Below are positions 1 through 57,100 of a DNA stretch of 64,000 bases, piece after piece. A program made the position numbers and the translations under genes. The notes under the pieces are model-generated. The model was not told where the DNA came from and ran no database searches. It worked only from the letters and a program-made list of their open reading frames with translations. Numbering within the stretch: the first letter of the stretch is position 1; each line of letters starts with the position of its first letter. The DNA comes from Squalus acanthias (taxonomy: Eukaryota), in the NCBI GenBank assembly GCA_030390025.1, contig CM059431.1, forward strand, positions 146,632,001 to 146,696,000, in the 5' to 3' direction.

Positions 1-258
1 CTTATGACATGTATTTCGTAATCTTGAACAACATGCAATAAAGATTTTCCATTTCGTACTATTCAACCGGGTCTACCTGAGTTTTCTCTGCATTATTGCT
101 CTCGCACCAAAGTCCAGTGTCAGAACCGTAAGGGCGAGTGGGTCGAACCACTCACAGGTGTCTAGTGTTACCAGGCTGGCTGGAGACCAGAACAGGCAAC
201 GAGGCCTAACACGGCACTAGCACCCAGGCTAAGCACAGAGCCACCCGAACCCCTTACA
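1..258 (+). repeat. 3' part of the 5' LTR
   Basis: Matches 11045-11302 with 8 mismatches by eye; ends in ...CTTACA; AATAAA at 37-42. Confidence 0.95.
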
Positions 259-262
259 GGAA

Positions 263-2086
263 ATGGCGACCACAAAGGGAAACTGGCAGCGAGAAAGTAA
301 TGTGTTAGACCCTGGTTTGAATGGGCGAAATGTTATGGAAGAGAGAATAGCCGATTATGTTTTTGGGAAAGTTAATTTGACTAAGAGATGGATAAGTGAC
401 CTGCTGGTGGATAAGCGTCCGCCAGACGCAGCCATCAGGTGGACAGGTAGCAAAGAACACAAAAAATCGGTGGAGAAAGCGGTTTGGCTGATGTGTTATA
501 AAAGGCAAGTCCAGATTTCGGACCAGGTCATCGTAGCACAGGCAGCTCAGATCAAGGGTTTGGAGGTGGAGATGGAAGAAAAGGTCGCGGGGGGGCAGCA
601 GCTCATCGCGTCCTTAAATGCGTTGCATCAGGAACGCCAGCTAGTCGCCAACCACCATGAGGCGAAAATAGATTACCTCGAGTGCCAGGTCACTGAGGCA
701 AAATTAAATGAGGGCAGAATCAGGGAACGATTTGCCCGCCTAGCTGCTCAAATAAAAGCCCAGGAAGAGAGCTTAAAGGGAGTTAGGGCGGCATATAAAA
801 TGGCCCTCGAAGATAAGCATGAGGGGGCCGACCACAGCGTCTGCCGGAGAGAGATAGGGAACCTTAAAGAGGCCCTGAAGAAAGCGCACGGCATGGTGTG
901 CCTTATCAGCCCATCAGCACACCAGCCGCCGGTGGGTGGGGAATTCCAAAAATCCCTACCAAACAGAGCAGAGGAGGTATTTGCCACTGTGCCCTCCGCG
1001 CCACCCAGCTATTCGGCAACCTGGGTAAGGGAGGAAGTGGTAGAAGTAGAGGAAGTGGTCCCTGAGGTAGTGCAGCCCCCTGAGGTAGTAGTGAAGCCGG
1101 GACCGTTGTGTCCGGTCACGGGCCACAAGAGAGGCCCGGACAGAGAAAATGGGGAAGCGGGGAATCTGCTCAACCAGCTTGTGTTGCCTCACAGCTCACA
1201 CCAGCTGAGGGCTATGATCAGTCACGTACGGAAGCTGTCCGAGTCAGACGACCCTTCCGTACATTTCAGGGAGGTAGAGCAGTCCGCAGCCATTAACGGC
1301 TGCGACGATGGGGAAAGGGCTAAAATGCTGCTGTTCTCCTTAGACAGCTCGATCCTCCAGTGTCTCTCACACGCGAGTAAAAGGGGTAATAGGACCTATG
1401 AGGAGTTAAGAGAGGATGTCCTGGAAGTGTCGGGGGCGGACGAAGAAGGTCCGTTTGTTAAATTGGGACAGACTATGCAGATGTAGGGAGAACCCCCGAA
1501 GGTTTTCGCCGACAGGCTGTGGCCGGTATATTGGTGTAGCTGCCCAGGCGCGCCAGCGCGTCACCGCATAGACGGTGTTGGTTTAGCCCACTGGCTCAGA
1601 TGCTTAGTAGCCAACAGCTTGCCAGCCGTCAGGGAGCAGGCCAAAGTGTGGTTTGACCCCACTAACCTCATCACAACTGAGGAGTCGGTCTTAAACCAAC
1701 TCACGGTAGGGTACCGTAATACTAGGAGTACGGGAGCGCGTCCCCTTAAGGGAAAGGTGCATGAGGCACGGCCCGCAGCCTCGGCTCAAAAGGAGTGACA
1801 TCAGGAAGGAAATCACGTCCCGCAAGCCAGTAACGCTTGTTTCATGTGCAGAAAGACAGGGCACTGGCGCAAGAACTGCAGGAACCCTTGGAAGGAGTCC
1901 AGGGATAAAAATCCCGCAGCCCGAGCCCAGGCGCCTGCCTCCGATAAGGGAGCTGGTGTGCATATCCATCCCGATGCGATAGAATCAATGCTGGGAGCCA
2001 TGCGGACCCTCATGATTTCGCAAGGGAGGGTGGCAGTTGCTACCAGCCCCGCAGATGCCGCAGCCCCATCCGCCGGAACCCAATGA
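263..2086 (+). pseudogene. gag: gag (~607 codons) with two in-frame stops (TAG 1484-1486, TGA 1796-1798)
   Basis: ORFs 263..1486 and 1844..2086 share a frame; N-terminal coiled coil, PSAPPSY, capsid-like helical region, CFMCRKTGHWRKNC (CX2CX4HX4C) knuckle; true start could be a downstream Met. Confidence 0.9.
264..281 (+). promoter_or_regulatory. Primer binding site, tRNA-Arg(TCG)-like
   Basis: TGGCGACCACAAAGGGAA, 5 nt after the LTR end; 16/18 match to the complement of the vertebrate tRNA-Arg(TCG) 3' end as recalled (TGGCGACCACGAAGGGAC). Confidence 0.8.
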
Positions 2087-5000
2087 CTAGAGCCCGCACA
2101 GCCCGTCTACCTGTGTCCGCTCAGCTATGATGCGTGGAAACGACTCCTGGTGGAGATGGAGGTAGAGAAGCAGAAGGGTAGTTATTTGTTGGACACGGGA
2201 GCTTCATGCACCGTGATTCATACGGATAGCCCCTTTGACTCACCACTGTCTACCAAGGTCCCATACACATTAGCGGGGTTCACGGGAAAAGAGCAGGCTG
2301 GCGCGTTCTCCATTCCGCCCTCCATTCATTTAGGAGCACTCCACACCACGTGGAAGTGCATACTGATGAAATGGCAAGAGGGAGGTGGGAGAGGCATCCT
2401 CGGATCAGATCTCCTATCGGAGCACGTGATCCTCGTGGACCTTAGGAATCACTGTCTCTGGGGAGCCAAGGGTGGAAAAGGCAAGGTAGTGGTAATTCCA
2501 GGGGAGGAAGGTAAAGGGGCCCTGTGTACCATGAAGCCATCCGGAGGCTACGACCTCGGGCTTATGGTCGCGGATGTCCCAACGGACATGCAGACGTACG
2601 TGTCAGATAATATGCACGCGTTTGCAACCCACAAGCACGATTGTGGGAGGTTTACCGGGTTTGAGGTCAGCGTAGACGGGGACCCCATGACCCGGCCCCA
2701 AAAGCAGTATAACTTCCCCAAAGAAGCAGAACCCGATATGGAGACAGCACTGTCCTCCTTGGTGCAGCAGGGCGTGTTGAGACCGATAGCCACACACGTG
2801 AACTCCCCATTATGGCCGGTGAGGAAGCCGGATAATTCGTGGAGGGCCACGGTGGACTACAGAGTCCTCAATAGTAACATTCCCGCCTGCGCGCCCACGG
2901 TAGCAGCAGTTGCTAACCTAATAGGGAGTATCCCAGCATCCGCGACCAGGTTCACGGTGCTGGATATCTCGAACGGTTTTTGGTCCATCCCGCTGCGGCG
3001 AGAGGACCAGTACAATTTGCCTTTACTTTCAAAGGACAACAGTACACGTGGAACTGTTTGCCACAGGGTTTCCACAACAGCCCCAGTATTTTCCACCAGT
3101 GTATGGCAGGAAGTACAAAGGAGTTTAGTCAGCCCAATCAGATAGTGCAGTACGTGGATGATTTGCTCCTATTTACGGACTCAAGGGAGGAGCATGGAAC
3201 ACTGCTGGCCGAGTTATTGGAGCTGCTAGCGAGAAAGGGTTTTAAAGTTAACCCTAAGAAAGCACGTAGCGGTCTGCAGGAAGTAAAATTCCTGGGGCTG
3301 ACCATTCGCGCTGGGGAAAGAGCCATAGATAAGGCTAGGAGGGAGTCGGTGCAAGAGTTACCGATTCCCAACACCATAAGGGGTGTGAGGTCCTTTTTGG
3401 GACTGACCGGTTACTGCAGAGACTTCATCGAAGACTATGCGGCCACAGCAGCGCCGCTGCTCCGACTCCTCCATAAGGGAGTGGAGTGGTCTTGGGACGA
3501 GGGCTGCCAGGCAGCCTTCGAGAAGTTAAAAAGGAATTTGTGGACCGCGCCAGCTTTAGGGGCATAGACAGGGGGAAGGAGTTTTTCCTGGAGTTAGCTG
3601 CCAGCGGAGACAGCTTGAGCGCTGTGCTGCTCCAAGAGCGTCACGGCAAGCTGAGGCCGGTTGTCTGTTCGTCCAGGGTGTTAACGGATGTGGAGAGGAG
3701 TTTCTCCAGTTGCGAAAGGTATCTTTTAGCCATGCATTGGGCTGACAAAAGATCAGCGATCTTCACAGGGCTCTCTCCCATCACTCTCCTCACCCATCAC
3801 TCACCGACTATGATGCTTCTCGATGGGAGGATCAAGGATGGGACCGTAAGCAGCGCTCGAATTGCACGCTGGACCCTTCTCCTCTCCCAGATGGATCTTA
3901 GAGTTAAAGGTCTTTGCGAGCCCAGGCTTGCGGCCAACTTGGTATACCCCAGTGCAGCCCACCAGTGTTCGGTGGAAGGGGTGTGGGAAGTCAACATAGG
4001 TTTGCGGGCCGGGATACATCCCACAGGGCGCGAAATTTATGTTGATGGGTCCAGCACAGTGTCCGCTGGCGAACGACTCACAGAGTGTGGAGTTTATGAC
4101 CCTGCGGCAAACCTTGCCCTGGCGATTAAGCTCCCCAGCACCATGAGCGCGCAGCAGGCTGAGTTGTCTGCGGTGGCGTATGTCATTACCCACCCAGAAA
4201 TTTTCCCAACCCCATACATGATTTGCTCGGACAGTATATTCACATGCAATTCGTGTACGGAATACCTGGCCATTTGGTCCCGTCGTGGATACACCTCCGC
4301 GGACGGGCGACCTTTAACGGTGAAGCCCTTGCTGGAAAAGATCCTAGAAGCAGTAGGGGAGGAAGGGGAGATTTTCATCCATAAGGTGAAGGCTCACTCC
4401 TCCACAGAGCCCCGTGGGGAGGGCAACCAGCAGGCGGATGCGCTAGCCAGGGAGGGTGCCCGTAATGGCATTTTCTGGGACCCCTATGGGCCCGGACCCA
4501 TGGCATCGATCCAAGGTAGGGACGGGAATCCCGGGAACACCAGGGTAGCATTGCACCTAGACCTTAAGACCGTCCAGAACCAGGATCCCGCCCTAAAAGC
4601 AGTTCGCAGAACCATTGCTGAGGGCAAGCAGGTAGAGGGTACGTACAGTACGGCAACCCTCTCCGTCAAAGAAGGCATGCTGTTCCGCGAGGAGAAGTGG
4701 GTTGTGCCGCATTAGCACAGGAGGGAATTCCTCCAGTTGGCTCATGAGGGGCCGGGGGCAGGGCACCCCGGGCCCGAGGTTACCTGGCAACGGGTAGAGC
4801 AGGCAGGATGGTGGCCGGGACTCAGGGAGCAGGTCCGCGAGTTCTTTGCAAGCTGTCTTGTGTGCGCTGCAAACAACCCAGACCCCCAGAAAAGGAAAGT
4901 GCCCATGGGGCACATCAGGAGGGTGGAGGGACCATGGCAGTCGATCCAGATCGACTATATAGGGCCCCTGCCCACCACCCAGGGAGGCTATAAATACTGC

Positions 5001-6581
5001 CTCGTCTTGGTGGACGTGTTTTCCAAATGGGTGGAAGCCTTCCCCTGTAGAACAGCTACGGCGCTGGGTATTGCAAAAATCTTGGTCCGGGAAGTGTTCT
5101 CGCGGTGGGGACTCCCCCGTTTCGTGGACTCAGACCAAGGGAGTCATTTCACCAGCCAGGTGATGCAGAACACCCTCATGCTTTTGGGCATTGAAGGGAA
5201 GTGGCACGTAGCGCACAATCCACAGTCATCCGGGATTGTTGAACGCATGAACCGGACCCTGAAGGAGAAATTGAGGAAAGAGACTATGAACTCGCCCCAA
5301 AAATGGGCGGAGGATCTGCCTCTAGTCCTCATGGGGATCCGGGCCAGTCAGTCGAAAAGTACGGGGTATTACCCGCACGAGGTGATGACTGGGAGGATCA
5401 TGCGAACCCCCACCCATGTGCTAGCGCCGGTGCTCACTGAGGGTCAGCTCCAAGAGGTAAGCAAGGACAAGTTCGTCCAGACCCACTTGGAGCGCCTGAA
5501 GCAGGGTTATGAGCAGGCGGCTGGGAACATGGGAAGGCAGCATCAGGGCAATCGCCTGTTGCTGGAACCCCGCAAGAAACAGGAGTGGGAAATAGGAGAC
5601 CAAGTCATGGTCAGAAACTATGCCAGAGTAGGGAGTCTGGAACCACTGTACATGGGACCCTACAGTATTGTAGATAAGGCGAGTCCCATGGTATACACCA
5701 TAAAGGTACCTCGGCGCACTAAGTGGTTCCACGTAAATCAGTGCAAACTGTATAAGCCGGGTGCACAAGGGCCAACCACAGGGGCCAAACCTGCGAGTGG
5801 GGACACGCAGCCCCGGGTAGGACCGCAGGGCACGCAGGCTGGCAAAGCAGCTTGCATCAGGGGAGAGGACATCCTAGCAAAATGTAGGATCCTTTATTGG
5901 GGTTGGGAGTCAGATGAGGAAGAGTTCGAAGAGGTCGACCAAGATAGTGACCCGAGCGAAGAGGAGCTGGGATCGGAGGACGAAAGGTTCGCCCGCGATT
6001 CAGGTAAAGGGAAGATAGGGACTGCGAGTGGAGGTCCACACAGGGTGGAAGCAGAAGCTGCAGGTCCCGAAATCAGGGGGGCGGAGCTAGGGGAGGCGGA
6101 GCCAGCGGCTGTGGTGGGACGACAGGACGTGGCGATGGAAGTCTCAGAGCCCAGCCCGTCCGCATTGGAAGTCTTGCCCTCAGGGGCGGTAGGGACTGCG
6201 AGTGAAGGGCCGCCTACTGGGCCAAGTAGGGCGGTGCCAGAGACTGCTGATCCCGAGTTCAGGGAGGCGGAGCCAGGGGAGGCGGAGCCAGCGGCTGTGG
6301 TGGGACCACAGGTCGCGACGGTGGAAGTCTCGAAACCCGGCCCATCGGTACTGGAGTTCTTGCCCCCGGTAGGCCCCCGTAGGTCAAGTCGGACACCCCA
6401 GCCCAGGAAGATATGGTCAAGTCCCCAGAGTGTCCTAAGGCGTAGGTTCAAGGCTAGGCAGCCCAGAGAGAGCCCAGTCACAGCCCAGCAGCAACAGGCT
6501 GCGGCAGATCAAAGGGGGGGGGGGGGGGTCAGCGCCCTCCCACCGTCGGGAAAAGCTTGTGGCCACCTTCACAGAATTTGA
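2087..6581 (+). pseudogene. pol: pol: protease, RT, degenerate RNase H (tether), RNase H, integrase with long C-terminal extension; frameshifts near 3014 and 3560, stop at 4713-4715
   Basis: LLDTGA and GILGSD (PR); NSPLWPV, LDISNGFWSI, LPQGF, YVDD at 3151 (RT); ELAASGDSLSAVLLQ (tether); YVDGS, SAQQAEL, SDS, KVKAH, GNQQADALA (RNase H); H-H-CLVC, QIDYIGP, DSDQG, GIVERMN, MGPY (IN). Confidence 0.95.
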
Positions 6582-6820
6582 ATAGGCCGCCCTGGGAACG
6601 GGCGGCGCTGTACAGTTTTATAAGATAAGTTAGAAGTTTTATAGTTTGTAATTCTTGTAAGTTTTATAGCTTCATTTTGATAAGTAAAAGATAAATGATG
6701 GGAGTTTAGATTAGGTTTAGTTAAAAGATCTATCCAGTGCACATGTCTTCTTACGTGAGGCGAGGTCAGGGGACCCGCTCACCCTTCACAAAAGCCAGAG
6801 ACTCTTGGGAGGCTGGCTAC

Positions 6821-6840
6821 ATCATTTTATCTGATCACAG
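6821..6840 (+). promoter_or_regulatory. Putative env splice acceptor
   Basis: atcattttatctgatcacAG ends 13 nt before the ATG at 6854 that opens a signal-peptide-like sequence. Confidence 0.5.
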
Positions 6841-6853
6841 GAATCAAGGAAGG

Positions 6854-9197
6854 ATGGAACGGATTCTGGTAGTGCTCGCGGCAAGCGGATGTGGACTGGC
6901 CTATCGAGGCCACACCAAGGATGTAGTGGTGTTTGGATGCTCCGGGGACACGGCCCCCATCACGGTGGATGGGACCGGGAGGCGAGAGGCTGAGGAGACC
7001 GCCACTTATTTCCACAAGGGAAGGTGGCCAGGATGGCTGGGAACGAATTCAACTGAATACTCCAGCACAACGGGTTTTGCCTACAAAGAGACTTCTTTGA
7101 TGTGCCCCAAAGTGAGGATCATCGCACCCAGAGTCAGCGTCACCGTCGGCAAACGGATTTGTTTAACTTGTAATGGGAATGTCCCATTGACCCGATGGTG
7201 GTGGCTACGAAAGCTGAGCAGAAATATGAGGAATTCTTCTGTCGAGTGGGAGCGACTGGGTAATAATACCCATCGGACAATTACGGGGACTAACAGGCAA
7301 TTGAAAGTCTGTTGGGACAAATGGTGGGAACCGGATGAGGGAATTTATGTGGGGGTCAAAGCACGTTTGCCCCAAAGGCATCTCCATATTTTTCGTGAAT
7401 CAGTGGCAGGATTATGGGAAAGGGATGAGGTGGGATGCTAGCAACAGGGGGTGCGGAGCCCCATACTCTCCGATCCCGGTAAACGCCACTGAACTCATTA
7501 CGCGCCCACGCAAGGCCCCGCCCACGATTCCGGTGGTTTTGGCTCAGGAAGAAGGGTGCCCTAAAACCAGTAAGGGACCCGGGAATGGTTTGGTACTGGT
7601 CCCTACAGACCAGATACTATTTCAGGGGGTACATTACGCAGTGGCCTCGGTGATTTTAAATCTCACCGAGGTGCGGTTGCCAGAGTGGTGCCCCAAAGAG
7701 ACGGAACAGTTGTACCAGGTCCTGTTGACCAATATGTTTAGACAATTTTATGAATTCGATTTTGCGGAGATTGATAAAACAAGTTTGTACACCACACCAC
7801 ATGAAGTTTTGGGCCAGGTGGGGAGACAAAGAAGGGGTGTTGTGAACGACATGTTCACTGCGTTCAATACAGGGACATCTGTGGTCAACACTCTAGATAA
7901 CGTGGAGGTGCAGACCCAGATTAATGGTTTAAAAACTCAATTAAAGAATATCCTTACAGACGAAAATAAGGTGGTAGGGTCTGGGTTACATGAAGACCAG
8001 GCCATGACGCTCCATTTAAAGGAAATTATAGCCGAACTGGAGAAACATGCGCGTACGGTAAATGCCCTGATCAGGGAAGATCGGAATGCATCCGATCAGG
8101 CTGCGCAGAACGAGGTGTGCATGCTCTACGGTGCGTGGTTATTGGGCGAGGGCCGCAGTAATTTGGAGGATTTAAAACAAGGTTTGGTCCGGTCCTGGAT
8201 AAGTAACAAACACCTGCAGGCGCTCCACCCTTTTCAGAACGCATTAAGCCCGTGCCAGCTCAGGCTAGCTTCAGAAGCATATCCAGTCCCCATGGGCTGC
8301 GGACGGTCAAACCATACCATTATGGGTATAGTGTTACGTATGCCGGTTTTGGGCGACACAGCAAAGCCCGCCCCGGTGTATCGGGTAGAGAACATTGGAG
8401 TCATTCAGGGGGGAGCCCACATTCGCTATGCAGCGGTCCCACCTTCCGTCATCCACTGGGAGCAAACGATGACAGGTACAGATCTCTCTGGTTGTCGTGG
8501 CAGGGGAGCACACATAATCCTGTGTCCCCAGCACTTGAATGCCTTTTTATCACCACAGTGCGGGTTCAGAACGGCTGGCGCCAAGCCCATGAATTGCACC
8601 ATGGAGGCAATGGCACAAGATCATGTGCCTCCGCAGGTGGCATACATAGGGGGTGGAACATATTGTGTTACCACTGCAGCGCAACACTACCAGCATGGAA
8701 ACCGTAACCGGTGTCCGGTGAGTGACAGCAGTTTCTGTTTTAAACCCAGGGCTGAAGTTCAAGTGGCACAGCAGCGAATTGTCCCGATCCCTGAACCATC
8801 CACTGTTCATCTAACAGTAAAAGAGAATTTTACCGACTTGCAGCGATTCGTCGCACATTTCGGATACATCATTCCCCCTCTCCCTGAGCACCTCACCAAA
8901 GTTTTGAAAGCCATTGCGGTTTCGCAGAAACATTTTTATACCCTTGAGCAAAAGACTGTCGAGATAGGGTCAGAGATCCTAGACATAGTAATCCCAACGT
9001 GGTGGGATCTGTTCACCAACATCGAAGTGCCTTCCTGGATTAGAATAGCCTCCCACATTTTAGTTGTATGCCAGGTCATAATTGTAGTATACCTGTTGGT
9101 AGTGCACTGTAAGAGAGGCAAGCGCCTCACAGAACAGGAAAACACAGGAGAGTGGCGAGAGCGTTACGTGCACGTGCATGGAGAAAGCGCCGCGTAA
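6854..9197 (+). pseudogene. env: env (~780 aa reconstructed; one frameshift at ~7346-7352): signal peptide, Ig-like domain, furin site, F-type fusion subunit, TM helix
   Basis: MERILVVLAASGCGLA; RQRR at 7824-7835 followed by GVVNDMFTAFNTGTSVV; heptad repeat; Cys-rich ectodomain; TM IASHILVVCQVIIVVYLLVV; several N-x-S/T sequons. Confidence 0.85.
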
Positions 9198-9638
9198 ACG
9201 GCCAGAGTGACGACACTCCAGTTTTTCCATGTTGTGTCTCGTAGTTGTTTATTGATTGTTATTTTTCTTAGAACATGTAGCTAAGTTTGGAATTCTGTTT
9301 TTTAAAAAGAGTTGTTCTTGGATTATTTTTAATTTTGTGTTGTTAAAATGGTTGTGTGATTGTTTTGTTTTTCTTTTCCTGAATAATAAAAAAAAAAAAA
9401 TGCACATACAGGTGGTGCAAGAGGCAGCGGCCTGTTACACCTGGAAGACATACACGCAATTTAAGTAAAAGGCAAATACTGCCAACGGTTTGATAAAATT
9501 TAATTTTTCCCTGGGAAATAAGGACGACACGGAGACCCTACATAGTTTTAAGTCAAGGGAATATTTGGATATGGAGAATCGAGATAATGTTGCTCACCAC
9601 CACTTTTAATTGATATGATAAGCGGAGTTATTCGCATC

Positions 9639-9650
9639 AACAGGAGGGAC
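9639..9650 (+). promoter_or_regulatory. Polypurine tract
   Basis: aacaggagggac immediately before TGTA at 9651. Confidence 0.7.
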
Positions 9651-10229
9651 TGTAGAATTCGCAAATTATCGCGATTTCGAAATAACGAGATAGAGACATA
9701 CAGTTTCGTATAAACAGCTTTATTTCAGCAAAATGCTGTCAGGTTTCAAAACGGACACAAGCAGCCTGTAAAATGGCCGCCTCGCCTCGTGGCAGAAGGT
9801 TCCAGACTTTCAGTAGGCAGACAAGATGGCGGTTCAATAAACATTTCAGCAAGATCGGACAGTACTCAGCATATTGATATAAGACAAGGCGCAATTTTTT
9901 TGCATTTTAACACCTAAGAAATATAAGTGCTGGAATCGGTTTTCCATGCACAAACGAGGGCTATTGTACTGGGCAATCAAGGGCCCATCCAAAGACATTG
10001 ATACGCAAAGTCCCCGTGGCTCTACGATGAGAGAGCCGTTCGCGGGTACTCACAGCAAGAATTTGGAGGCCCCAAAACCCCTCCAGGGAGACTCCTAGCC
10101 GGTTCCACAATGGAAGAAATATTAACGGGTACTTAGACAGTTACAAGTATCACCGAAACCCATTAACGACAAGAACCACCCCATACAAGCAGTTTGAGCG
10201 CCAAAACATGACAAAAGATGAACGTTAAG

Positions 10230-10263
10230 ATTGGGCGGGAGATAAGGAATTACAGTACTATAA
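10230..10263 (+). promoter_or_regulatory. Putative LTR promoter: ATTGG (CCAAT), GGGCGG (GC box), TATAA
   Basis: gATTGGGCGGga at ~10230, TATAA at 10259-10263, pyrimidine-rich initiator-like tract ~25 nt downstream. Confidence 0.55.
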
Positions 10264-11080
10264 CTGTAGTGTCCAAACGTCCATCTTCCTCTTATCCCGG
10301 CCGACTCTTGACTCTCTTATTCTCTGCCGACCACCGACTCGAGCTCTTGACTCTTATTCTCTGATCCGCTGATCCTTCTGGGGTCGACCTCGTGGCTTGC
10401 CACAAAGATCTGTGGAGAGCTGGTCTGCGAAGGCCTGTAAGCGGGCGCACCATCCCGAGAGGTCGGTAAACAGTGTTGGATCCGAAGGCCCGAGAGGAGA
10501 TGAGATGAGATGAGATGAGAAGAGAAGAAGAAGACTACACGTGGCGCTGCGGTCAGTAAGCCCCGACTGCGCCCGAAAATCGATTAATCACTTCTTTTGA
10601 ATTTTATCGGCTACTCCACAACTGGCACCAGAAGACTCTTCTTCGAGTTTTACCGAACGGGTGTCGGCACAGGAAGACTCTTCTTTGAATTTTATCAGGA
10701 ATCCGAGGTCAACACAGATCTTCATGGCAGCAGGCGGTCCAGCCTGCTAGCCGGAGCAGAGCGAGTAAACAAGTGGGGTACAGAGACCCCTGATCAAAAC
10801 GTGAATAGTCAGGTGTTGTGGCGAAAACATCCGAGCATCCTTTTAGAATTCTCTGAGTTATCACGAGTGGTGAGCATGATTATCGATCCTACAGATCTAG
10901 ATTAGGACAGGTATTAATAGGGGAGGGTTTTTGTTTTAAGGATAATTATAATGTGTGTCCCCTTTTACGATGTGTCGTGCGCTCCTCGTTTCCCTAAACC
11001 TAGTTTCATAAATGTATGTAAGCTTGTACTGTCATTAATCTGTGCTTTTGACATGTATTTCGTAATCTTGAACAACATGC

Positions 11081-11086
11081 AATAAA
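11081..11086 (+). terminator. LTR polyadenylation signal AATAAA
   Basis: Present at the same place in both LTRs. Confidence 0.65.
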
Positions 11087-11302
11087 GATTTTCCATTTCG
11101 TACTATTCAACCGGGTCTACCTGAGTTTTCTCTGCATTATTGCTCTCGCACCTAAGTCCAGTGTCAGAACCGTAAGGGCGAGTGGGTCGAACCACTGACA
11201 GTTGTCTAGTGTTACCAGGCTGACTGGAGACCAGAACAGGCAACGAGGCCTAACCCCGCACTAGCACCCAGGCTTAGCACAGAGCCACCCGAACCCCTTA
11301 CA

Positions 11303-11378
11303 AACTTTAACTCTGTTTCTCTCTCTACAGATGTTACTTGACCTGCTGAGTATTTCCTGAACTTTCTGTTTATATTTA
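11303..11378 (+). mobile_element. Penelope-like terminal fragment, interrupted by the provirus
   Basis: ttaactctgtttctctctctacagatg...gacctgctgagtatttcc matches the reverse complement of 37460-37530. Confidence 0.7.
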
Positions 11379-11384
11379 AGATTC

Positions 11385-12998
11385 AGAACTGATGAAGTAG
11401 CTCAACACACCCATGAGGCTCTGTGGACAAACAGCCACAGCAAAATTCTACTCCACAATAATCTGCAAACTTATGGCCCGCATGTCCCTTACTCTACCAT
11501 TAACATCAAACCAGAGGACCGAACGTGGTTCAGTGAGGACAGTAGAAGAGATTGCCAGGAGCAGCATCAGGCGCACCTAAAAATGAGGCGTCAACTGGTA
11601 AGGCTGCAAAATGCATGTTGAACTGCAGAAGCAGCATGCTATGGACAGAGCTAAGTGATTCCACAACCAGCGGATCAGGTCAAAGATTTGCAGTGCTGTC
11701 GCATCCAGTCGTGAATGTTGATGGGTTTACAACCGTCTTCAACCAGAAGTACCGAGAGTATGATCCATCTCGGCCTCCTCCTGAGGTCCCAAAACATCTT
11801 CAGTCAATTTGAACAAATCCACGTGGTATCAGGAAACGGCGGAGCGCACGAGATGCAGCAAAGGCTCTTAGCCCCCAGCAACATCCCGGCTGTAGTGCTG
11901 AAGAATTGCGCTCCAGAACTAGTCGTGACACCAACCTAACTATTGCAGTACAGCAACAACACTGGAGCTATCCGAAAAAGTGGAAAATTACCCAGGATTT
12001 TCTTGTTCAGACACAGGACAAATCCAATGCGGCTAATTACTGCCCCATCAGACTAATTTCAATCATCAGCAAAGTGATAGAAGAAGTTATGTGCTGTCAA
12101 CTCAGCTTGGGTTTCGCCAGGACTGCTCAGGTGCAGACCTCATTACAGCCTTGGTCCAACCATGGCAAAGGTCTGAATTCCAGGGGTGAGGTGGAAGTGA
12201 CTGCCCTTGACAGCAAGGAAGCATTCGACCGACTGTGACCCTAACTGTGCAAAAACTGAAGTCAATGGGAATCAGGCGCAATACTCTGCAGTCATACTTA
12301 GCACAAAGTGATTGTTGGGAGACCAATAACCTCCGCCCCAGCAGATCGCTACATTACTTCCTCAGGCCAGTGTCCTTTTCTGAACCAACTTCAGACGCTT
12401 TATCCATGACTTTCGCTCTGTCATATGGTCAGAATGGGCATGTTTTCGCTGATGTATTTCAGTGTTCCATTCGTGTGATGAAATATTCTTCACTTTCCTG
12501 GATGATTGCAGCTCAAGCCACACTCAGCAATCTCGAAACAACCGAACACAAACAGTCCGCTTGATCAGCATCCCATCCACCATCTTAAAAATTGACTCCC
12601 ACCACCACCGGCGCACCGTAGCTGCAGTGTGTACCATTTACAAAATGCACTACAGCAACTCGTCAAGACTTATTCTACAGCGTCTCACAAACTCGTGACT
12701 TCTTGCATCTAGAAGGACAAGGGCAGCAGGCGCAGGGGAGCACGATCATGTCCAAGTTCCAATGCAAGTCACACAACATTCCTGACTTGGAAATATATCG
12801 CCGTTTCGACATCGTCGCTGTTTCAAAATCCTGGAGCTCCCTGTCCAACTGTACTTTGGGAGTAACTTCACCACACGGACTACAGCGGTTCAAGAAGGCG
12901 ACTCACCACCACATACTCAAGGAAAACTAGGGATGGACAACAAAGGCTGTCCTTGCCAGCGCTGCCCTCATCCCGAGAATGCATAAATAAAATAAAAG
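11385..12998 (+). mobile_element. Decayed CR1/L2-group LINE fragment (RT remnants, 3' end, A-rich tail)
   Basis: DKSNAANYCPIRLISIISKVIE and ALDSKEAFDRL remnants; the 3' end is homologous to the reverse complement of 40608-41100. Confidence 0.85.
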
Positions 12999-36231: not shown

Positions 36232-36731
36232 NNNNNNNNNNNNNNNNNNNNNNNNNNNNNNNNNNNNNNNNNNNNNNNNNNNNNNNNNNNNNNNNNNNNN
36301 NNNNNNNNNNNNNNNNNNNNNNNNNNNNNNNNNNNNNNNNNNNNNNNNNNNNNNNNNNNNNNNNNNNNNNNNNNNNNNNNNNNNNNNNNNNNNNNNNNNN
36401 NNNNNNNNNNNNNNNNNNNNNNNNNNNNNNNNNNNNNNNNNNNNNNNNNNNNNNNNNNNNNNNNNNNNNNNNNNNNNNNNNNNNNNNNNNNNNNNNNNNN
36501 NNNNNNNNNNNNNNNNNNNNNNNNNNNNNNNNNNNNNNNNNNNNNNNNNNNNNNNNNNNNNNNNNNNNNNNNNNNNNNNNNNNNNNNNNNNNNNNNNNNN
36601 NNNNNNNNNNNNNNNNNNNNNNNNNNNNNNNNNNNNNNNNNNNNNNNNNNNNNNNNNNNNNNNNNNNNNNNNNNNNNNNNNNNNNNNNNNNNNNNNNNNN
36701 NNNNNNNNNNNNNNNNNNNNNNNNNNNNNNN
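36232..36731. other. Assembly gap (500 N)
   Basis: Run of N. Confidence 1.
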
Positions 36732-37558: not shown

Positions 37559-39675
37559 GGAAAAACGCTGGAGATCGAACAGTTTTTTTAATGAAGTGTG
37601 GGGGTAGGGAAAGGGGGGAGGGGAGGAAGGAACAAAAGGGATCGTCTGTGATAGGATGGAAGTCAGGAGAGAATAAGAGAGATTAAGAGAGATAAAGAGA
37701 TGATGAAAGCAAAAGGAGATGGTAATGGCAGAGGTTAAGAAACAAAAGATGGCTCTAGATGAAGTGTAAATGGCACTGGCAGAATGTAATACAGCTGACA
37801 TGTGGGAGAGAGAAAATTAAAAAAAAAATCAAATAAATGGAAAAAAAAAGAAAAGATAGGGGCAGAGGTTATGGTCTGAAATTGTTGAAATCTATGTTGA
37901 GTCCAGATGGCTGGAAAGTGCCTAATCGAAAGATGAGGTGCTGTTCCTCGAGCTCACGTTGAGCTTCATTGGAACAGTGTAAAAGGCCGAGGACGGTGAG
38001 GTCTGAGTGGGAGTGGGGAGGAGAATTAATGTGACAGGCGGCCGGAAGCTCGGGGTCCCCTTCTGGATCGAACGGAGGTGTTCCGCAAACCAGTCATCCA
38101 ATCTACGTTTGCTCTCCCCAATGTAGAGGAGACCATATTGCGAGCACCAAATACAGTATACTAAATTGCAAGAAGTACAAGTAAATTGCTGTTTCGCCTG
38201 GAAGGAGGATTTGGGGCCCTGGACAGTGGGAAGGGTGGAGGTAAAAGGGCATGTGTTGCATCTCCTGTGCTTGCACGGGAAGGTGCCGGGCAAAAGGTAA
38301 GGCGTGTTGGGGGTGATAGAGCAGTGGACCAGGGTGTCGCGGAGGGTGTGGTCCCTTCGGAACGCTGAAAGTGGAGGTGAGGGGTAGATGTGTTTGGTGG
38401 TGGGATCACGCTGGAGGTGGCGGAAATGGCGGAGGATGATCCGTTGAATGTGGAGGCTGGTGGGGTGAAAGATGAGGACAAGGGGAACCCTAGCGTGATT
38501 CTGGGAGGGAGGGGAAGGGGTGAGAGCAGAAGTACGAGAAATAGATCGGACATGGTCAAGGGCCATGTCAACCACAGTAGAGGGGAATCTTCGGTTTAGG
38601 ATAAATGAAGAAATGTCGGAAGCACTAGTATGTAAGGTGACATCGTCAGAGCAGATGCGGCGGAGATGGAGACACTGGGAGAATGGAATAGAGTCCTTCC
38701 AGGAAGCGGGGTGGGTGGAAGTGTAGTCGAGGTAGCTCTGGGAGTCAGTGGGCTTGTAGTGAATGTTTGTCAATAGCCTATCCCCAGAGATGGAGACAGA
38801 GAAGTCGAGGAATGGAAGGGAAGAGTCGAAGATTGACCATGTGAAGGGGTGGGAAGGGTGGAAATCGGAAGCAAAATGAATGAAATTTTCTAGTTCAGGG
38901 CGAGAGCAGGAAACAGCATCAATACAGTCAACAATCTATTGGAAAAAGAGGTGAGGGAGGGGACCCGAGTAGGACTGCAACAAAGAATGTTCCACATATC
39001 CCACGAAAAGGCAGGCATAGCTGGGACCCATGCGGGTTCCCGTAGCAACACCTTTAATTTCGAACAAGTGAGTGGAGTCAAAGTAGAAGATTTTCAATGT
39101 GAGAACAAGTTCAGCCAGGCGGAGGAGGGTGGTGCTGGATGGGGACTGGTTGGGCCTCTGTTCAAGGAAGAAGCGGAGCGCCCTCAGGCCGTCCTGGTGC
39201 GGGATGGAGGTGTAGAGGGATTGGACGTCCATTGTGAAAAGGAGACGTTTGGAGACAGGAAACTGGAAGCTGTTAAAGTGATGGAGGGCGTCGGAAGAGT
39301 CGTGGATGTAGGTGGGAAGAAACTGGACAAGGGGAGAACAAATAGAGTCGAGATAGGAAGAGAGAAGTTCGGTGGGGCAAGAACAGACTGAAACGATGGG
39401 TCTATCTGGGCAGTCCTGTTTGTGGAACTTGGGAAGGAGGTAGAAGCGGGCTGTGCGGGGTTGGGGAATTATGAGGTTGGCGGCAGTGGAGGGAAGATCT
39501 CCAGAGGAGATGAGTTCAATGACGGTCTTGGAAACGGTGGCTTGATGTTCGGTAGTGGGGTCATGGTCCAGGCGGAGGTAGGAGGAGGTGTCGGAGAGTT
39601 GGCGTTCAGCCTCCGCAAGGTAGAGGTCGGTTCGCCAAACAACAACAGCACCACCCTTGTCAGCAGGTTTAATGA

Positions 39676-39875
39676 GAAGTCGCACAACACCAGGTTATAG
39701 TCTAACAGATTTATTTAAAATTATAAGCTTTCGGAGCTGTCCTGCCCCTTCTTCAGGTATAGTTACACTGAGTGAATCTACAAAAGTTCATAGAATATAA
39801 ACACAGATACTACAGAGATACAATCTTTCCTTAATTCTCATTTTTGTCCACCCCAGTCCAATGCCGGCATCTCCG
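39676..39875. mobile_element. 200-bp insertion (terminus of another Penelope-type family) inside the Penelope RT, with a 15-bp TSD
   Basis: cagcaggtttaatga (39661-39675) and cagcaggtttattga (39876-39890) flank it; hammerhead-like CTGAAGA...GAAAGCTT on the minus strand at 39725-39757. Confidence 0.75.
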
Positions 39876-40416
39876 CAGCAGGTTTATTGACAAGGCTGTG
39901 GTTAGATCTGAGAGAATGGAGTGCTGCAAGTTCAGAGGGAAGGAGGTTGGAGTGAGTGAGGGGAGCAGAGAAATTGAGACGGCCGATGTCACGCCGGCAG
40001 TTTGCAATGAAAAGATCTAGATAGGTTCAGAGGCCAGAGGGAGGGCTCCAGGTAGAACTAGAATTCTAAAAACGGGAGAAAGCTTCAGCTGTGCGGGGGA
40101 AGACGCTTCAACAACTCTTTGACACCAACACCCATCCAGAACCTTCTTCCCCTTCACTTTCCTCTGACCCCAACCCTTCTTCCAATCTCACCCCCTGCCG
40201 TGTTTTCACTACCCGCTCTGACCTTCCCCTCTCTGACCCCAAAAGATCAGTCCTTACCAAAACCGTGAGCTTCATCCCCTTACGCCACCATCTCAATAAA
40301 TTTCGAGCTCAGCACGATGCTGAGCTCTTTTTCCGCCGCCTTCATCTCCCTGCACATTTATTTTGCCAGGAGTCTTCCCCAGAACAGCTGACACTTTCTC
40401 CCGTTTTCAAAATTCT

Positions 40417-40459
40417 CGTTAGATTCTCAGGGTCGTGGATTCCGGTCCCACGTTGTGTG
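40417..40459 (+). pseudogene. 3' half of a tRNA-Lys(CTT)-derived pseudogene
   Basis: tctcagggtcgtggattccggtcccacgttgtgtg vs tRNA-Lys TCTCAGGGTCGTGGGTTCGAGCCCCACGTTGGGCG. Confidence 0.7.
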
Positions 40460-40607
40460 AAGTTTTATTTTGTTTTCACGGCCGAACCCCAGCTCTGAAT
40501 TCCCGGGGCAGTGTCACCGGGTCTTTATCTGGCACCTTTTGCTTAATAATATAATTGCGGGTTTAAGATTGAAAATGGCCTCCGCTTCACTGTAAGTGCC
40601 AGAGACA

Positions 40608-41685
40608 ATTTTTTTTTAATTTGTTTATCTGGGCGTCGCTGGCAAGGCCAGCATTTATTGCCCATCCCTAGTTGCCCTTGAGAAGGTGGTGGTGAGGCAC
40701 CTTCTTGAACCACTGCAGTCCGTGTGGTCAAGATACTCCCACAGTGCAGTTAGGTAGGAATTTCATGAATTTTGACCCAGCGATGATGAAGGATCAGATA
40801 TATATTTCTAAGTTAGGATCGCGTGTGACTTGGAGGGGAACTTGGAGGTGATGGTGTCCCCATGCGCCTGCTGCCCTTGTCCTTCTAGGTGGAAGAGGTC
40901 GCGAGTTTGGGAGGTGCTTCCGAAGAAACATTGGCGAGTTGCTGCAGTGCATCTTGTAGATGGAGGGATTGAATTCTTAAAATGGTGGATGTGGTGCCAA
41001 TAAAGCGGGCTGCTTTGTCCTGGATGGTGTCGAGCTAATTGAGTGCTGTTGGAGCTGTACTCATCCAGGCAAGTGAAGAGTATTCCATCACATTCCTTAC
41101 TTCCGCCTTGCAGATGATTGATTTGGGGAGTCAGGAGGTGAGACACTCGCCGCAGAATACTTAGCCTCTGACCAGCTCTTGTTTCCGTAGTATTTATGTG
41201 GCTGGTCCAGTTAAGTTTCTGGTTAATGGTGACCCCCCAATGTTGATTGTTGGGGGATTGGCGATGGTAATACCGTTGAAATTCATGGGGCAGTTGTTAG
41301 ACTTTCGCTTGTTGGAGATAGTCATTTCCTGGCAATTCTGTGGCACGAATGTTACCTGCCACTTATCAGCCCAAGCAAGAACGCTGTCCAGGTCTTCTTG
41401 TATGCGGGCATGGACTGCTTCATTATCTGAGGAGTTGTGAATGGCACTGAACACTGTGCAATCATCAGGGAACATCCCCATTTCCGAGCTTATGTTGGAG
41501 GGAAGTTCATTGATGAAGCAGCTGAAGCTCATTGGGCCTAGGACACTGCCCTGAGGAACTCCTGCAGCGATGTCTTGGGCTGTGATGTTTGATCTTCAAA
41601 CACCACAACCATCTTCCTTTGTGCTAGGTATGACTCCAGCCCATGGAGACTTTCCACCCACCCCCACCCGATGCCCATTGAATTC
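40608..41685 (-). mobile_element. 5'-truncated decayed CR1/L2-group LINE
   Basis: FSCFINELP, MFPDDCT, WADKWQVTF RT remnants; poly-T at 40609-40617; same family as 11385-12998. Confidence 0.88.
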
Positions 41686-42716: not shown

Positions 42717-42919
42717 GCAAAATACTGCGGATGCTGGAAATCCGAAATAACAACAGAAAACGCTGGAAAAACTCAGCAGGCCAGTTAACATCCGTGGAGA
42801 GAGAAAGAGAGTTAACGTTTCAGGCCGACGAAGGGTTTCGACCTGAAACGTCAACTCTCTTTCTCTCTCCACGGATGCTGCCTGGCCTGCTGAGTTTTTC
42901 CAGCGTTTTCTGTTGTTAT
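42717..42919. mobile_element. Palindromic non-autonomous element made of two inverted Penelope termini
   Basis: 42747-42825 is the near-perfect reverse complement of 42842-42919; the arms are homologous to 37460-37540. Confidence 0.8.
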
Positions 42920-43364
42920 CTCGCACGAACTAACTCCGTCTCTGGGTCACGCAAGCACTGCACAGCTGCAGCCTTGAAACTAAAGTTCGTGTGGCCCCGG
43001 AGGAAAAAGGAAGGCGCGGAGTGAGATATCACGGGGAAGCCTTACCCCACGTCAACACTCAGTCTTTAATTTCTGGGCCATTAAGGACAAATAAACTTAC
43101 AATTTGCAGCACAGCTACTTCCACATTCATGGACATATCCTGGAGAGTGAAACAGAAGCCATCAGCACGGTTGGTGATCAGGGGGTAAGTCGTCAAACTG
43201 CTAAATCAAAGTGTGCCACCCCCGGTACAATCACAGTTTGTGACTTAACTCTTTTCAAGTCCTTAACGGCTGTTTTACGGACAGTGTGGACTGACCCTGT
43301 CTATCGGAATCTCGAAATTTCTGCTAGTCTGGGAATGACATTCATCAGATGTACCCCAATACAC

Positions 43365-53325: not shown

Positions 53326-53600
53326 TCTATGTAATTAATTAAAAATGTATTATTTACTGTTCAGTTAATTTATGCCAGCAGTCTCTGCTACACCACAGAT
53401 ACCCGAGAAACAATAAAATTGAAGTTTTGTATAAAAAAAAAAGAGAAATACTCACCAACCAATCACTTACCTGCTTTCTGGTGATGTCACACTTCGATTA
53501 TTTTTTACCTCTCTCCTGCTCTCGGCTTGGTGAAAGCCTACCTGGTCGCTGCCGCCTTTTACCGCCGCCGCCTCGCCGCTGTTGCTCCACCCAGGTCCGC

Positions 53601-54169
53601 CTCACTCTCTGTCCTGTGGCAGTTTGTTCTGAGTCTCCTCACTCTGTCCTGTGACAGTTTGTTCTGAGTCTCCTCACTCTCTGTCCTGTGGCAGTTTGTT
53701 CTGAGTCTCCTCACTCTGTCCTGTGACAGTTTGTAATGATTCTCCTCACCCTGTCCTGTGGCAGTTTGTTCTGAGTCTCCTCACTCTCTGTCCTGTGGCA
53801 GTTTGTTCTGAGTCTCCTCACTCTGTCCTGTGACAGTTTGTTCTGAGTCTCCTCACTCTCTGTCCTGTGACAGTTTGTTCTGAGTCTCCTCACTCTCTGT
53901 CCTGTGACAGTTTGTTCTGAGTCTCCTCACTCTCTGTCCTGTGGCAGTTTGTTCTGAGTCTCCTCACTCTCTGTCCTGTGACAGTTTGTTCTGAGTCTCC
54001 TCACTCTCTGTCCTGTGGCAGTTTGTTCTGAGTCTCCTCACTCTCTGTCCTGTGGCAGTTTGTTCTGAGTCTCTTCACTCTGTCCTGTGACAGTTTGTTC
54101 TGAGTCTCCTCACTCTCTGTCCTGTGACAGTTTGTTCTGAGTCTCTTCACTCTGTCCTGTGACAGTTTG
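53601..54169 (-). repeat. 35/37-bp tandem array (~16 units) at the LINE 5' end
   Basis: (ctcactct[ct]gtcctgtgRcagtttgttctgagtctc)n, lying inside the TSD boundaries. Confidence 0.92.
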
Positions 54170-57100
54170 TCTGTCAATTCACTTTCCCAATCCATTGATG
54201 GTATCTGTCCATTCACTTTCCCAATCCATTGATGGTATCTGTCCATTCACTTTCCCAATCCATTGATGGTATCGGTCCATTGACTTTCCAAAATCCATTG
54301 ATGGTAGCTGTCCATTCACTTTCTCAATCCAATGATGGTATCTGTCCATTCACTTTCCCAATCCAATGATGGCATCTGTCCATTCACTTTCCCAATCCAT
54401 TGATGGTATCTGTCCATTCACTTTCCCAATCCAATTATGGTATCTGTCCATTCATTTTCTCAATCTATTGATGGTATCTGTACATTCACTTTCCCATTAT
54501 ATTGATGGTATCCGTCCATTCACTTTCCCAATCCATTGATGGTATCTGTCCATTCACTTTCCCAATCCATTGATGGTATCTGTCCATTCACTTTCCCAAT
54601 CTATTGATGGTATCCGTCCATTCACTTTCCCAATCCATTGATGGTATCTGTCCATTCACTTTCCCAATCTATTGATGGTATCTGTCCATTCTCTTTATCA
54701 ATCCATTGATGGTATCCTTCCATTCACTTTCCCAATCCATTGATGGTAACTGTCCATTCACTTTTCCAATCCATTGATGGTATCTCTCCATTCACATTCC
54801 CAATCCATTGATGGTATCTGTCCATTCACTTTCCCAGTCCATTGATGTTAGCTGTCCATTCACTTCCCAATCCATTGATGGTAACTCACCATTCTCCTTC
54901 CCAATCCATTGATGGTATCTGTCCGTTCACTTTCCCAATCCATTGATGGAATCTGTCCATTCAGTTTCCCAGTTCATTGATGGTATCTGTCCATTAACTT
55001 TCCCAATCCATTGATGGTATCTGTCCATTCAATTTCCCAATCCATTGATGGTATCTGTCGATTAACTTTCCCAATCCATTGATGGTATCTGTCCATTCAC
55101 TTTATCAATCCATTGATGGTATCTGTCCATTCACTTTCCCAATCCATTGATGGTATGTGTGCATTGATTTCCCTAATCCATTAATGATATCTGTCCATTC
55201 ACTTTCCCAATCCATTGATGGTAACTGTCCATTCACTTTCCCACTCCATTGATGGTATCTGTCCATTCACTTTCCCAGTCTATTGATGGTATCTGTCCAT
55301 TCACTTTCCCAATCCATTGATGATATCTGTCCATTCACTTTCCCAATCCATTGATGGTAACTGTCCATTCACTTTCCCAATCCATTGATGGTATCTGTCC
55401 ATTCACTTTCCCAATCCATTGATGGTATCTGTCCATTCACTTTCCAATCCATTGATGGTATCTGTCCATTCACTTTCCCAATCCATTGATGGTATCTGTC
55501 CATTCACTTTCCCAATCCATTGATGGTATCTGTCATTCACTTTCCCAATCCATTGATGGTATCTGTCCATTCACTTTCCCAATCCATTGATGGTATCTGT
55601 CCATTCACTTTCCCAATCCATTGATGGTATCTGTCCATTCACTTTCCCAATCCATTGATGGTATCTGTCCATTCACTTTCCCAATCCATTGATGGTATCT
55701 GTCCATTCACTTTCCCAATCCATTGATGGTATCTGTCCATTCACTTTCCCAATCCATTGATGGTATCTGTCCATTCACTTTCCCAATCCATTGATGGTAT
55801 CTGTCCATTCACTTTCCAATCCATTGATGGTATCTGTCCATTCACTTTCCCAATCCATTGATGGTATCTGTCCATTCACTTTCCCAATCCAATGATGGTA
55901 TCTGTCCATTCACTTTCCCAATCCATTGATGGTATCTGTCCATTCACTTTCCCAATCCATTGATGGTATCTGTCCATTCACTTTCCCATCGATTGATGGT
56001 ATCTGTCCATTCACTTTCCCAATCCATTGATGGTATCTGTCCATTCACTTTCCCAATCCATTGATGGTATCTGTCCATTCACTTTCCCAATCCATTGAAG
56101 GTATCTGTACATTCACTTTACCCATCCAATGATGGTATCTGTCCATTCACTTTCCCAATCCATTGAAGGTATCTGTACATTCACTTTCCCAATCTATTGA
56201 TGGTATCTGTCCATTCAATTTCCCAATCTATTGATGGTATCCGTCCATTCACTTTCCCAATCCAATGATGGTATCTGTCCATTAACTTTCCCAATCCATT
56301 GATGGTATCTGTCCATTCACTTTCCCAATCCATTGATGGTATCTGTCCATTAACTTTCCCAATCCATTGATGGTATCTGTCCATTCACTTTCCCAATCCA
56401 TTGATGGTATCTGTCCATTCACTTTCCCAATCCATTGATGGTATCTGTCCATTCACTTTCCCAATCCATTGATGGTATCTGTCCATTCACTTTCCCAATC
56501 CATTGATGGTATCTGTCCATTCACTTTCCCCAATCCATTGATGGTATCTGTCCATTCACTTTCCCAATCCATTGATGGTATCTGTCCATTCACTTTCCCA
56601 TTCTATTGATGGTATCTGTCCATTCACTTTCCCAATCCATTGATGGTATCGGTCCATTGACTTTCCCAATCCATTGATGGTATCTGTCCATTCACTTTCC
56701 CAATCCAATGATGGTATCTGTCCATTCACTTTCCCAATCCATTGATGGTATCTGTCCATTCACTTTCCCAATCCATTGATGGTATGTGTCCATTCACTTT
56801 CCCAATCCATTGATGGTATCGGTCCATTGACTTTCCAAAATCCATTGATGGTATCTGTCCATTCACTTTCCCAATCCAATGATGGTATCTGTCAATTCAC
56901 TTTCCCAATCCATTGATGGTATCTGTCCATTCACTTTCCCAATCCATTGATGGTATCTGTCCATTCACTTTCCCAATCCATTGATGGTATCGGTCCATTG
57001 ACTTTCCAAAATCCATTGATGGTAGCTGTCCATTCACTTTCCCAATCCAATGATGGTATCTGTCCATTCACTTTCCCAATCCAATGATGGCATCTGTCCA

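Follow-up and report, generated by a model that had tools for sequence, protein, structure and literature searches.

The window analysed here is a stretch of 64,000 nucleotides (nt) of genomic DNA (contig CM059431.1, positions 146,632,001 to 146,696,000), and its first 11,302 nt hold most of an endogenous retrovirus (ERV). This provirus probably belongs to the snakehead retrovirus (SnRV)-like grade of the Retroviridae (class III, non-foamy, 'clade Huo'), as a dead copy of an abundant elasmobranch ERV family. The preliminary description of the window had proposed a member or a relative of the lokiretroviruses (hereafter Loki). Membership does not survive: judged by its sequence, the provirus is not a lokiretrovirus, as its reverse transcriptase (RT) lies inside the Retroviridae, an approximately unbiased (AU) test rejects a grouping with Loki (p=0.003), the PFG motif is missing and both RNase H and integrase fall outside the Loki clades. 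The suggestion of a possibly undescribed family stands, no name for it having been found in the published work examined; the family is best filed as a new one of the SnRV-like grade, and it may deserve separate rank.

The RT (2700-3560, plus strand, as are all features of the provirus; Pfam RT, 2e-23) is interrupted by a frameshift near 3015. Its motifs, LPQGF...QYVDD, resemble those in the SnRV row of the alignment in the Loki paper. The RT trees (91, 82 and 44 rows) draw on a pool of 157 proteins and 44 reference loci, together with pieces of the window; nine of 166 RT proteins were left out as too short. The careful tree comprises 44 rows (LG+G4) and represents the window by the unbroken C-terminal piece of its RT, while the 91- and 82-row trees are quick trees, one of them the quick form of a mixture-model tree. 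In the careful tree the Retroviridae form a clade (100/99) with the window inside, and Loki forms a separate one (100/99). Within the Retroviridae, the window belongs to a clade (98/90) with elements of X. tropicalis, Latimeria, a frog and unnamed sources, the sister of which is SnRV (80/79). It stands outside the foamy clade (100/100) and the class I clade (100/99), and Gypsy elements are set apart from it at 100/100. Both quick trees agree on the exclusion from Loki and do not resolve the position of SnRV. For Loki, the references are proteins taken from databases and assigned by their motif and by the match of P0113 to the lamprey row of the Loki paper. SnRV (P0102/L035) is recognised by its match to a row of the same paper, its length of 10,688 nt and its UAG-GGC junction (PMC12193657, PMC13517186). 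L048, L039 and L045 were labelled walleye dermal sarcoma virus (WDSV), Moloney murine leukaemia virus (MoMLV) and SSSV (salmon swim bladder sarcoma virus) by length or junction, and the remaining viral labels come from size, motif and tree.

The RT is followed by a degenerate RNase H, the tether (3567-3890; Pfam RT_RNaseH E 2e-16; a frameshift near 3560 lies just upstream), which aligns to the gammaretroviral connection domain, and by a second, catalytic-type RNase H (4032-4460; Pfam RNase_H E 4e-19) with the motifs YVDGS, QQAELS, CSDS and GNQQAD. The second RNase H is missing from all 10 Gypsy controls, and the dual arrangement, put forward earlier as a retroviral hallmark, is borne out. The integrase (4716-6581, just downstream of a stop at 4713) has HHCC, DDE and GPY/SH3 parts, the last reaching to ~5755 (Pfam H2C2 9e-15, rve 5e-16, SH3/GPY). 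Its long, acidic, low-complexity tail holds a 147-nt direct repeat. In pairwise comparison the integrase scores 198-212 bits against Loki, 124 against SnRV and 101-123 against foamy viruses. Quick trees of RNase H and integrase were made from 54 rows, of which 11 have no usable RNase H and three no integrase. In both, the Loki clades (100 and 97) exclude the window, which is placed near the base and away from SnRV, with weak deep nodes; in the RNase H tree a poorly supported split (80) puts it on the side of Loki and foamy viruses.

The env gene (6854-9197, with a frameshift near 7350) encodes a signal-like N-terminus, an N-terminal extension, an F2-like segment and an F1-like subunit, with a furin-type cleavage site, RQRR, at 7824-7835 and a transmembrane segment near 9050-9110. 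The extension may contain an Ig-like domain (~7100-7400), from weak signals: Pfam Ig_3 at E 0.09 and a shark homologue named 'Ig-like domain-containing'. No CX6CC, CXXC or immunosuppressive domain (ISD)-like motif was found in the window Env, in line with the preliminary description, which had also noted the likeness of Loki Envs to the F proteins of Mononegavirales. The predicted fold of the window Env agrees with such a likeness. A model of the Env core (568 unbroken residues, predicted local distance difference test 73) matches the F of human parainfluenza virus 3 (hPIV3; E 4e-12), Newcastle disease virus (NDV; Z 12.1, root-mean-square deviation (rmsd) 18.2, 367 aligned) and human metapneumovirus (hMPV; Z 9.2, rmsd 5.8, 283 aligned), as well as foamy Env (Z 8.3, rmsd 5.8, 275 aligned) and the Env of walleye epidermal hyperplasia virus 1 (WEHV-1; BFVD Q9WHI8, E 2e-9), whereas unrelated coiled coils reach Z <=6. 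The Env thus has a predicted fold in common with foamy Env and the F of paramyxoviruses.

Sequence profiles extend this relationship. The best PDB sequence matches of the family Env profile are foamy Env (E 2e-4). On a panel of 40 reference Env frames (match defined as domain E <0.01), the profile finds 16 of 17 foamy Envs together with WDSV (L048) and SnRV, and neither gamma (0/12) nor delta (0/7) frames, nor those of SSSV and L055. In separate comparisons, WDSV Env matches at E 1e-7 and SnRV Env over 263 columns (probability 84%, E 7e-6). The Env of the SSSV-like locus L045 is of gamma type, unlike the walleye epsilonretrovirus Envs. By language-model features the window Env is also F-like, and the SnRV Env scores 0.94 for Baculo_F and Fusion_gly clusters, a weak test on the tool's own scale (recognition value low, 1324); the F-like fold of SnRV Env thus rests on profile and language-model evidence. 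Pfam Fusion_gly has no match in the window Env or in 32 members of its alignment. The tether occurs throughout the retroviruses, and the Envs of SnRV, WDSV and foamy viruses match the Env profile too, so neither feature is diagnostic of Loki; an F-like Env in particular is not, and a dual RNase H combined with an F-like Env does not suffice to recognise a lokiretrovirus.

The gag gene (263-2086) encodes a probable N-terminal coiled coil, a putative capsid region and one CCHC zinc knuckle at ~1835-1882 (Pfam E 5e-4). The long coiled coil claimed earlier is plausible from the sequence and from a crude, unvalidated heptad scan, which is positive in windows that begin at residues 128-138 and 190-200, but also at a Val/Glu-rich stretch (244-254), at 279-280 and at 357. 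Compared with PDB sequences, the capsid region was not recognised and gave only zinc-knuckle matches above E 0.2. The first ATG of the gag frame (263) overlaps the primer binding site (PBS) and the second lies at 335; this overlap recurs in 17 of 17 copies, and the frame is open onward to the next ATG in 14 of them.

gag and pol share one frame, separated by a TGA at 2084. This stop is common to 29 of 30 loci and is therefore not a lesion; the longer string TGACTAG (2084-2090) occurs in 28 of 30. As the compared copies diverge by only 3-7%, this conservation demonstrates an original stop, not readthrough. UGA-CUAG is nevertheless a probable readthrough signal, of type II, by analogy with the layout common to SnRV, gamma- and epsilonretroviruses. 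Alphaviruses have UGACUA as their type II context, and in human genes readthrough is supported by UGACUAG (PMC13517186). The retroviral contexts given in the accessible part of that review are UAGGGA, UAGGAU, UAGGGC, UGAAGA, UGACGA and UGAAGU, and UGA-CUAG is not among them; as a working signal it would be a further readthrough class for retroviruses. No stable RNA hairpin was found downstream of the gag stop in the window copy (z -0.09).

With SnRV, for which an N-terminal Gag coiled coil, one zinc finger and a frame common to gag and pol with an intervening stop are described (PMC2717909), the provirus shares these three features, the coiled coil by the crude scan. Further points of likeness are the tether plus RNase H, the RT motifs (the C-terminal RT piece is 42% identical) and an Env lacking CX6CC and ISD, with an F-like core that can be aligned. 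The SnRV primer is presumably an arginine tRNA, as is the tRNA-Arg(TCG) of the window, but the PBS sequences are unlike. SnRV differs further in its stop context (UAG-GGC), a leader of ~235 nt where the window PBS abuts the gag frame, and an Env frame of 1,134 codons against ~780. The window has long terminal repeats (LTRs) of 1.65 kb, and it has neither the SnRV-type insert between RNase H and integrase nor a recognised accessory open reading frame (ORF); no plus-strand ORF of more than 105 codons lies downstream of env in the window, which bears on accessory ORFs of the SnRV type. The SnRV-like ERVs of fish, coelacanth, amphibians, reptiles and birds form a recognised clade (PMC4977317, PMC12193657, PMC6001957), and an ERV lineage that clusters with SnRV is published for the elephant shark. 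That lineage, CmiERV lineage I, is likewise chondrichthyan and has a similar LTR divergence of 0.033, but its host is a holocephalan and its element measures 9.6 kb, a comparison made by description only (PMC4422223).

Several results weigh against the SnRV-like placement. The sister node with SnRV reaches only 80/79 and is not resolved in the mixture-model tree, and the AU test merely fails to reject a direct grouping with SnRV (p=0.087), as it fails to reject one with foamy viruses (p=0.14). The window and SnRV stay apart in the trees of RNase H and integrase, by score the integrase is closer to Loki, and the window Gag has no significant similarity to SnRV Gag outside the zinc knuckle, nor any to Loki Gag. 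The trees lack identifiable ERV-L or fish foamy-like references and elephant-shark lineage I. A reciprocal foamy Env profile misses the Envs of the window, SnRV and WDSV (best real target E 0.36, reversed control 0.028). Part of this would suit a separate deep lineage of Retroviridae, with elasmobranch, coelacanth, amphibian and eel Env relatives, that is not the closest kin of SnRV, keeps an older Loki-like integrase and merits its own name. We regard it as unlikely, if far from negligible. It is favoured by the clade without SnRV (98/90 in the 44-row tree, 86 in the mixture-model quick tree), by a long branch of ~1.1 changes per site to the nearest RT outside the family, by the near-basal integrase and RNase H and by UGA-CUAG in place of UAG-GGC. 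SnRV is still the sister in the careful tree, the published SnRV-like clade covers the fish, coelacanth and amphibian ERVs that make up this one (PMC4977317), and the choice is largely a question of rank.

A true lokiretrovirus, or a sister lineage of Loki in a cartilaginous fish, is very improbable. The dual RNase H, the F-like Env with an RXKR-type site and the highly similar integrase (PMC7947760, PMC9040795) are real likenesses, as is the side taken in the RNase H tree; the integrase scores speak for the preliminary description, though in its tree the integrase lies outside the Loki clade. It would also mean a new host, as a screen of six chondrichthyan genomes found none positive (PMC7947760). 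All 24 Loki RT rows of the alignment in PMC7947760 carry PFG(Y/L) where the window has LPQGF; as a mark of Loki this motif is our reading of that alignment rather than a criterion of the paper. In the source genome, the lamprey Loki RT finds <=42% identity among the 150 candidates scored out of 14,470, when Loki RTs are 61-70% identical to each other, and its top 12 matches are all PQGF. The window PBS string was not found in the part of the Loki supplement that was searched (PMC7947760), a weak negative, and the window has no smc gene; the retrieved Loki proteins run from Gag to Pol with neither a stop nor a listed zinc knuckle. A foamy-like ERV is improbable. It could account for the foamy matches of the Env profile, the 4-bp target duplication, the long LTR and the AU result, and the fusion core of foamy Env (PDB 8RM0, 8RM1, 8OZH) is of class Ib, as in paramyxo- and pneumovirus F (PMC11468914). 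The window lies outside the foamy RT clade, however, and differs in RT, Gag and Pol expression. Spumaviruses express Pol separately, whereas the window has an in-frame gag-stop-pol. The extra domain that foamy Env inserts between its subunits for receptor binding is absent from the Env core of ~570 amino acids (aa), the extension being N-terminal instead, and the window has a zinc knuckle where spumaviruses have no zinc finger (PMC2717909). There is scarcely any probability that the provirus is a Ty3/Gypsy element with an env or a class I (epsilon-like) ERV. F-like Envs are common in Gypsy elements (10.1101/2023.10.26.564294) and WDSV Env matches the family profile, but none of the Gypsy controls has a second RNase H, and the RT tree refutes both identities (Gypsy split off at 100/100; class I clade 100/99 without the window).

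In the anatomy of the SnRV-like provirus, the layout from LTR through PBS, gag, protease, RT, tether, RNase H, integrase, env and polypurine tract to LTR was found as first described. The whole measures 12,696 nt, its 5' LTR starting 1,394 nt upstream of the window edge in the adjoining genome sequence. Both LTRs span 1,652 nt with TG...CA ends and are 97% alike (Kimura two-parameter (K2P) distance 0.028). The window contains the 3' part of the 5' LTR (1-258), a 97% repeat of 11045-11302, and the complete 3' LTR (9651-11302), with a TATA-like element at 10947 and AATAAA at 11081; a polypurine tract, recognised by its sequence, precedes it (9641-9650). The 4-bp target duplication AACT (11303-11306) flanks the provirus within an older host repeat. 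Of the 20 LTR loci fetched, 15 are solo LTRs, and 13 of these are flanked by exact 4-bp duplications. The PBS (264-281) matches a tRNA-Arg(TCG) gene of the same genome at 16 of 18 positions, and the match is 18/18 in 10 of 17 other copies covering it (20 were fetched, three of which had no match at this 5'-end locus). Five bases separate it from the LTR (259-263), as in 16 of 17 copies; the usual retroviral spacing is two. The Pfam order is zinc knuckle, protease (DTG; 2135-2419; gag-asp_proteas E 5e-4, RVP E 4e-3), RT, tether, RNase H and integrase. About six disabling lesions had been announced, and six were counted: the stops at 1484 and 1796 in gag and at 4713 at the start of the integrase, and the frameshifts near 3015, 3560 and 7350. 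The two gag stops are present in 2 of 30 loci and are therefore private.

The search of the genome for other copies returned many relatives. For the LTR, the gag/pol junction and env, the best 40 matches each are 94-98% identical, out of 3,561, 1,560 and 2,553 first-look candidates, which are not copy numbers; 29 other loci are 93-97% identical across a longer aligned stretch. A second PQGF-type ERV family (L121-L132) occurs in the same genome, at ~70% DNA identity to the window RT over short stretches. A direct search of the window RT against viral contigs gave no match, and related contigs turn up across all 30 bins in four sequencing runs, three of them presumed to be RNA and one DNA, a result that demonstrates neither transcription of this locus nor a ranking of genes. 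The closest Env proteins are those of skate and sawshark (59-77%); among the 20 of 42 matches looked up, more distant relatives come from five other sharks, two frogs, coelacanth and eel. With the horn shark protein, two FBXO15 exons of the genome share 90% (87 aa) and 80% (41 aa) identity, in a comparison without rate control. The host is accordingly very likely a cartilaginous fish, as had been proposed. The LTR distance of 0.028 corresponds to an insertion about 6 or 63 million years ago, at rates of 2.2e-9 and 2.2e-10 per site per year respectively (PMC7947760, PMC4422223).

A second copy (L002/L003; G000:C7, ~146.713-146.726 Mb, minus strand) lies inverted ~70 kb downstream, with the same flanks and target duplication. 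It is 97-98% identical to the window provirus in both element and flanks, and the LTR distance between the copies (K2P 0.022-0.023) is lower than that within each (0.028-0.032). Their pol and env lesions differ, the two gag stops being found in 2/30 loci as stated above. Either a segmental inverted duplication after insertion or a haplotype retained across an assembly gap would produce this pattern. Furthermore, shark gene models P0003, P0005, P0077 and P0078 fuse pieces of the Env family to Niban, cadherin, FBXO15 and a zinc-finger protein; they are probably annotation chimeras and possibly cases of exonisation.

Several other features lie in the remainder of the window. A 34-bp satellite occupies 15399-36231 and 43394-64000, with ~615 plus-strand copies and >450 that run the opposite way, and its arrays lie on either side of a 500-N gap (36232-36731); a 37-bp array is found at 53600-54170. 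The broken frames at 37922-40498 (minus), 11361-12238 and 40808-41595 are, by eye, what we take to be a Penelope-type RT/GIY-YIG element and long interspersed nuclear element (LINE) RT fragments. An 86-nt inverted repeat at 42743-42923 (9-nt spacer, 93% complementary) is possibly a small DNA transposon.

These elements suggest a life cycle for the SnRV-like family. The LTR would drive a transcript, the reverse transcription of which would be primed by tRNA-Arg(TCG), in keeping with the observed primer match. Gag-Pol would arise by ribosomal readthrough of the conserved UGA-CUAG, yielding a Pol with both tether and second RNase H, and its integrase would make the 4-bp target duplications seen at the insertions. 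Env is probably translated from a spliced RNA, given the pyrimidine-rich AG at 6839-6840 just before its ATG. Cut at RQRR, it may form a class I fusogen with F2/F1-like parts, of the type of paramyxovirus F and foamy Env, as the predicted fold suggests, with the N-terminal extension probably binding the receptor. After insertion, this copy gained its six lesions and is now dead.

By itself the locus is just one dead member of a multi-copy family, from a clade on record for a chimaera, coelacanth and amphibians, and its value is comparative. We propose, tentatively and with slightly more doubt than confidence, that retroviral Env was ancestrally an F-like fusogen (class Ib), which persists in Loki, foamy viruses, the elasmobranch-amphibian-coelacanth clade, SnRV and the walleye epsilonretroviruses, with the gamma/beta-type Env of most orthoretroviruses as a later replacement; the family would then be its largest young record from sharks and rays, and the first retrovirus with an alphavirus-type UGA-CUAG readthrough. 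Published accounts have left four scenarios for the origin of Env open (PMC7947760) and have preferred independent gains in Loki and canonical retroviruses, whose Envs seemed unrelated (PMC9040795). The F link of foamy Env has been shown (PMC11468914). The Env matches weaken the argument for independent gains, but repeated capture may still have occurred, as Gypsy elements too commonly carry genes of the F type (10.1101/2023.10.26.564294). An F-like Env for the SnRV grade or the walleye epsilonretroviruses was not found in the literature searches made, although Viro3D, the Hoetzel 2021 preprint, Wang et al. 2023 and the 2024 Cell foamy cryo-EM work may cover part of it. By bridging the Envs of SnRV, WDSV and foamy viruses, the family profile bears on the single or repeated origin of retroviral Env, and an ancestral F-like Env, if true, would overturn the preference in print for separate gains by Loki and by canonical retroviruses.

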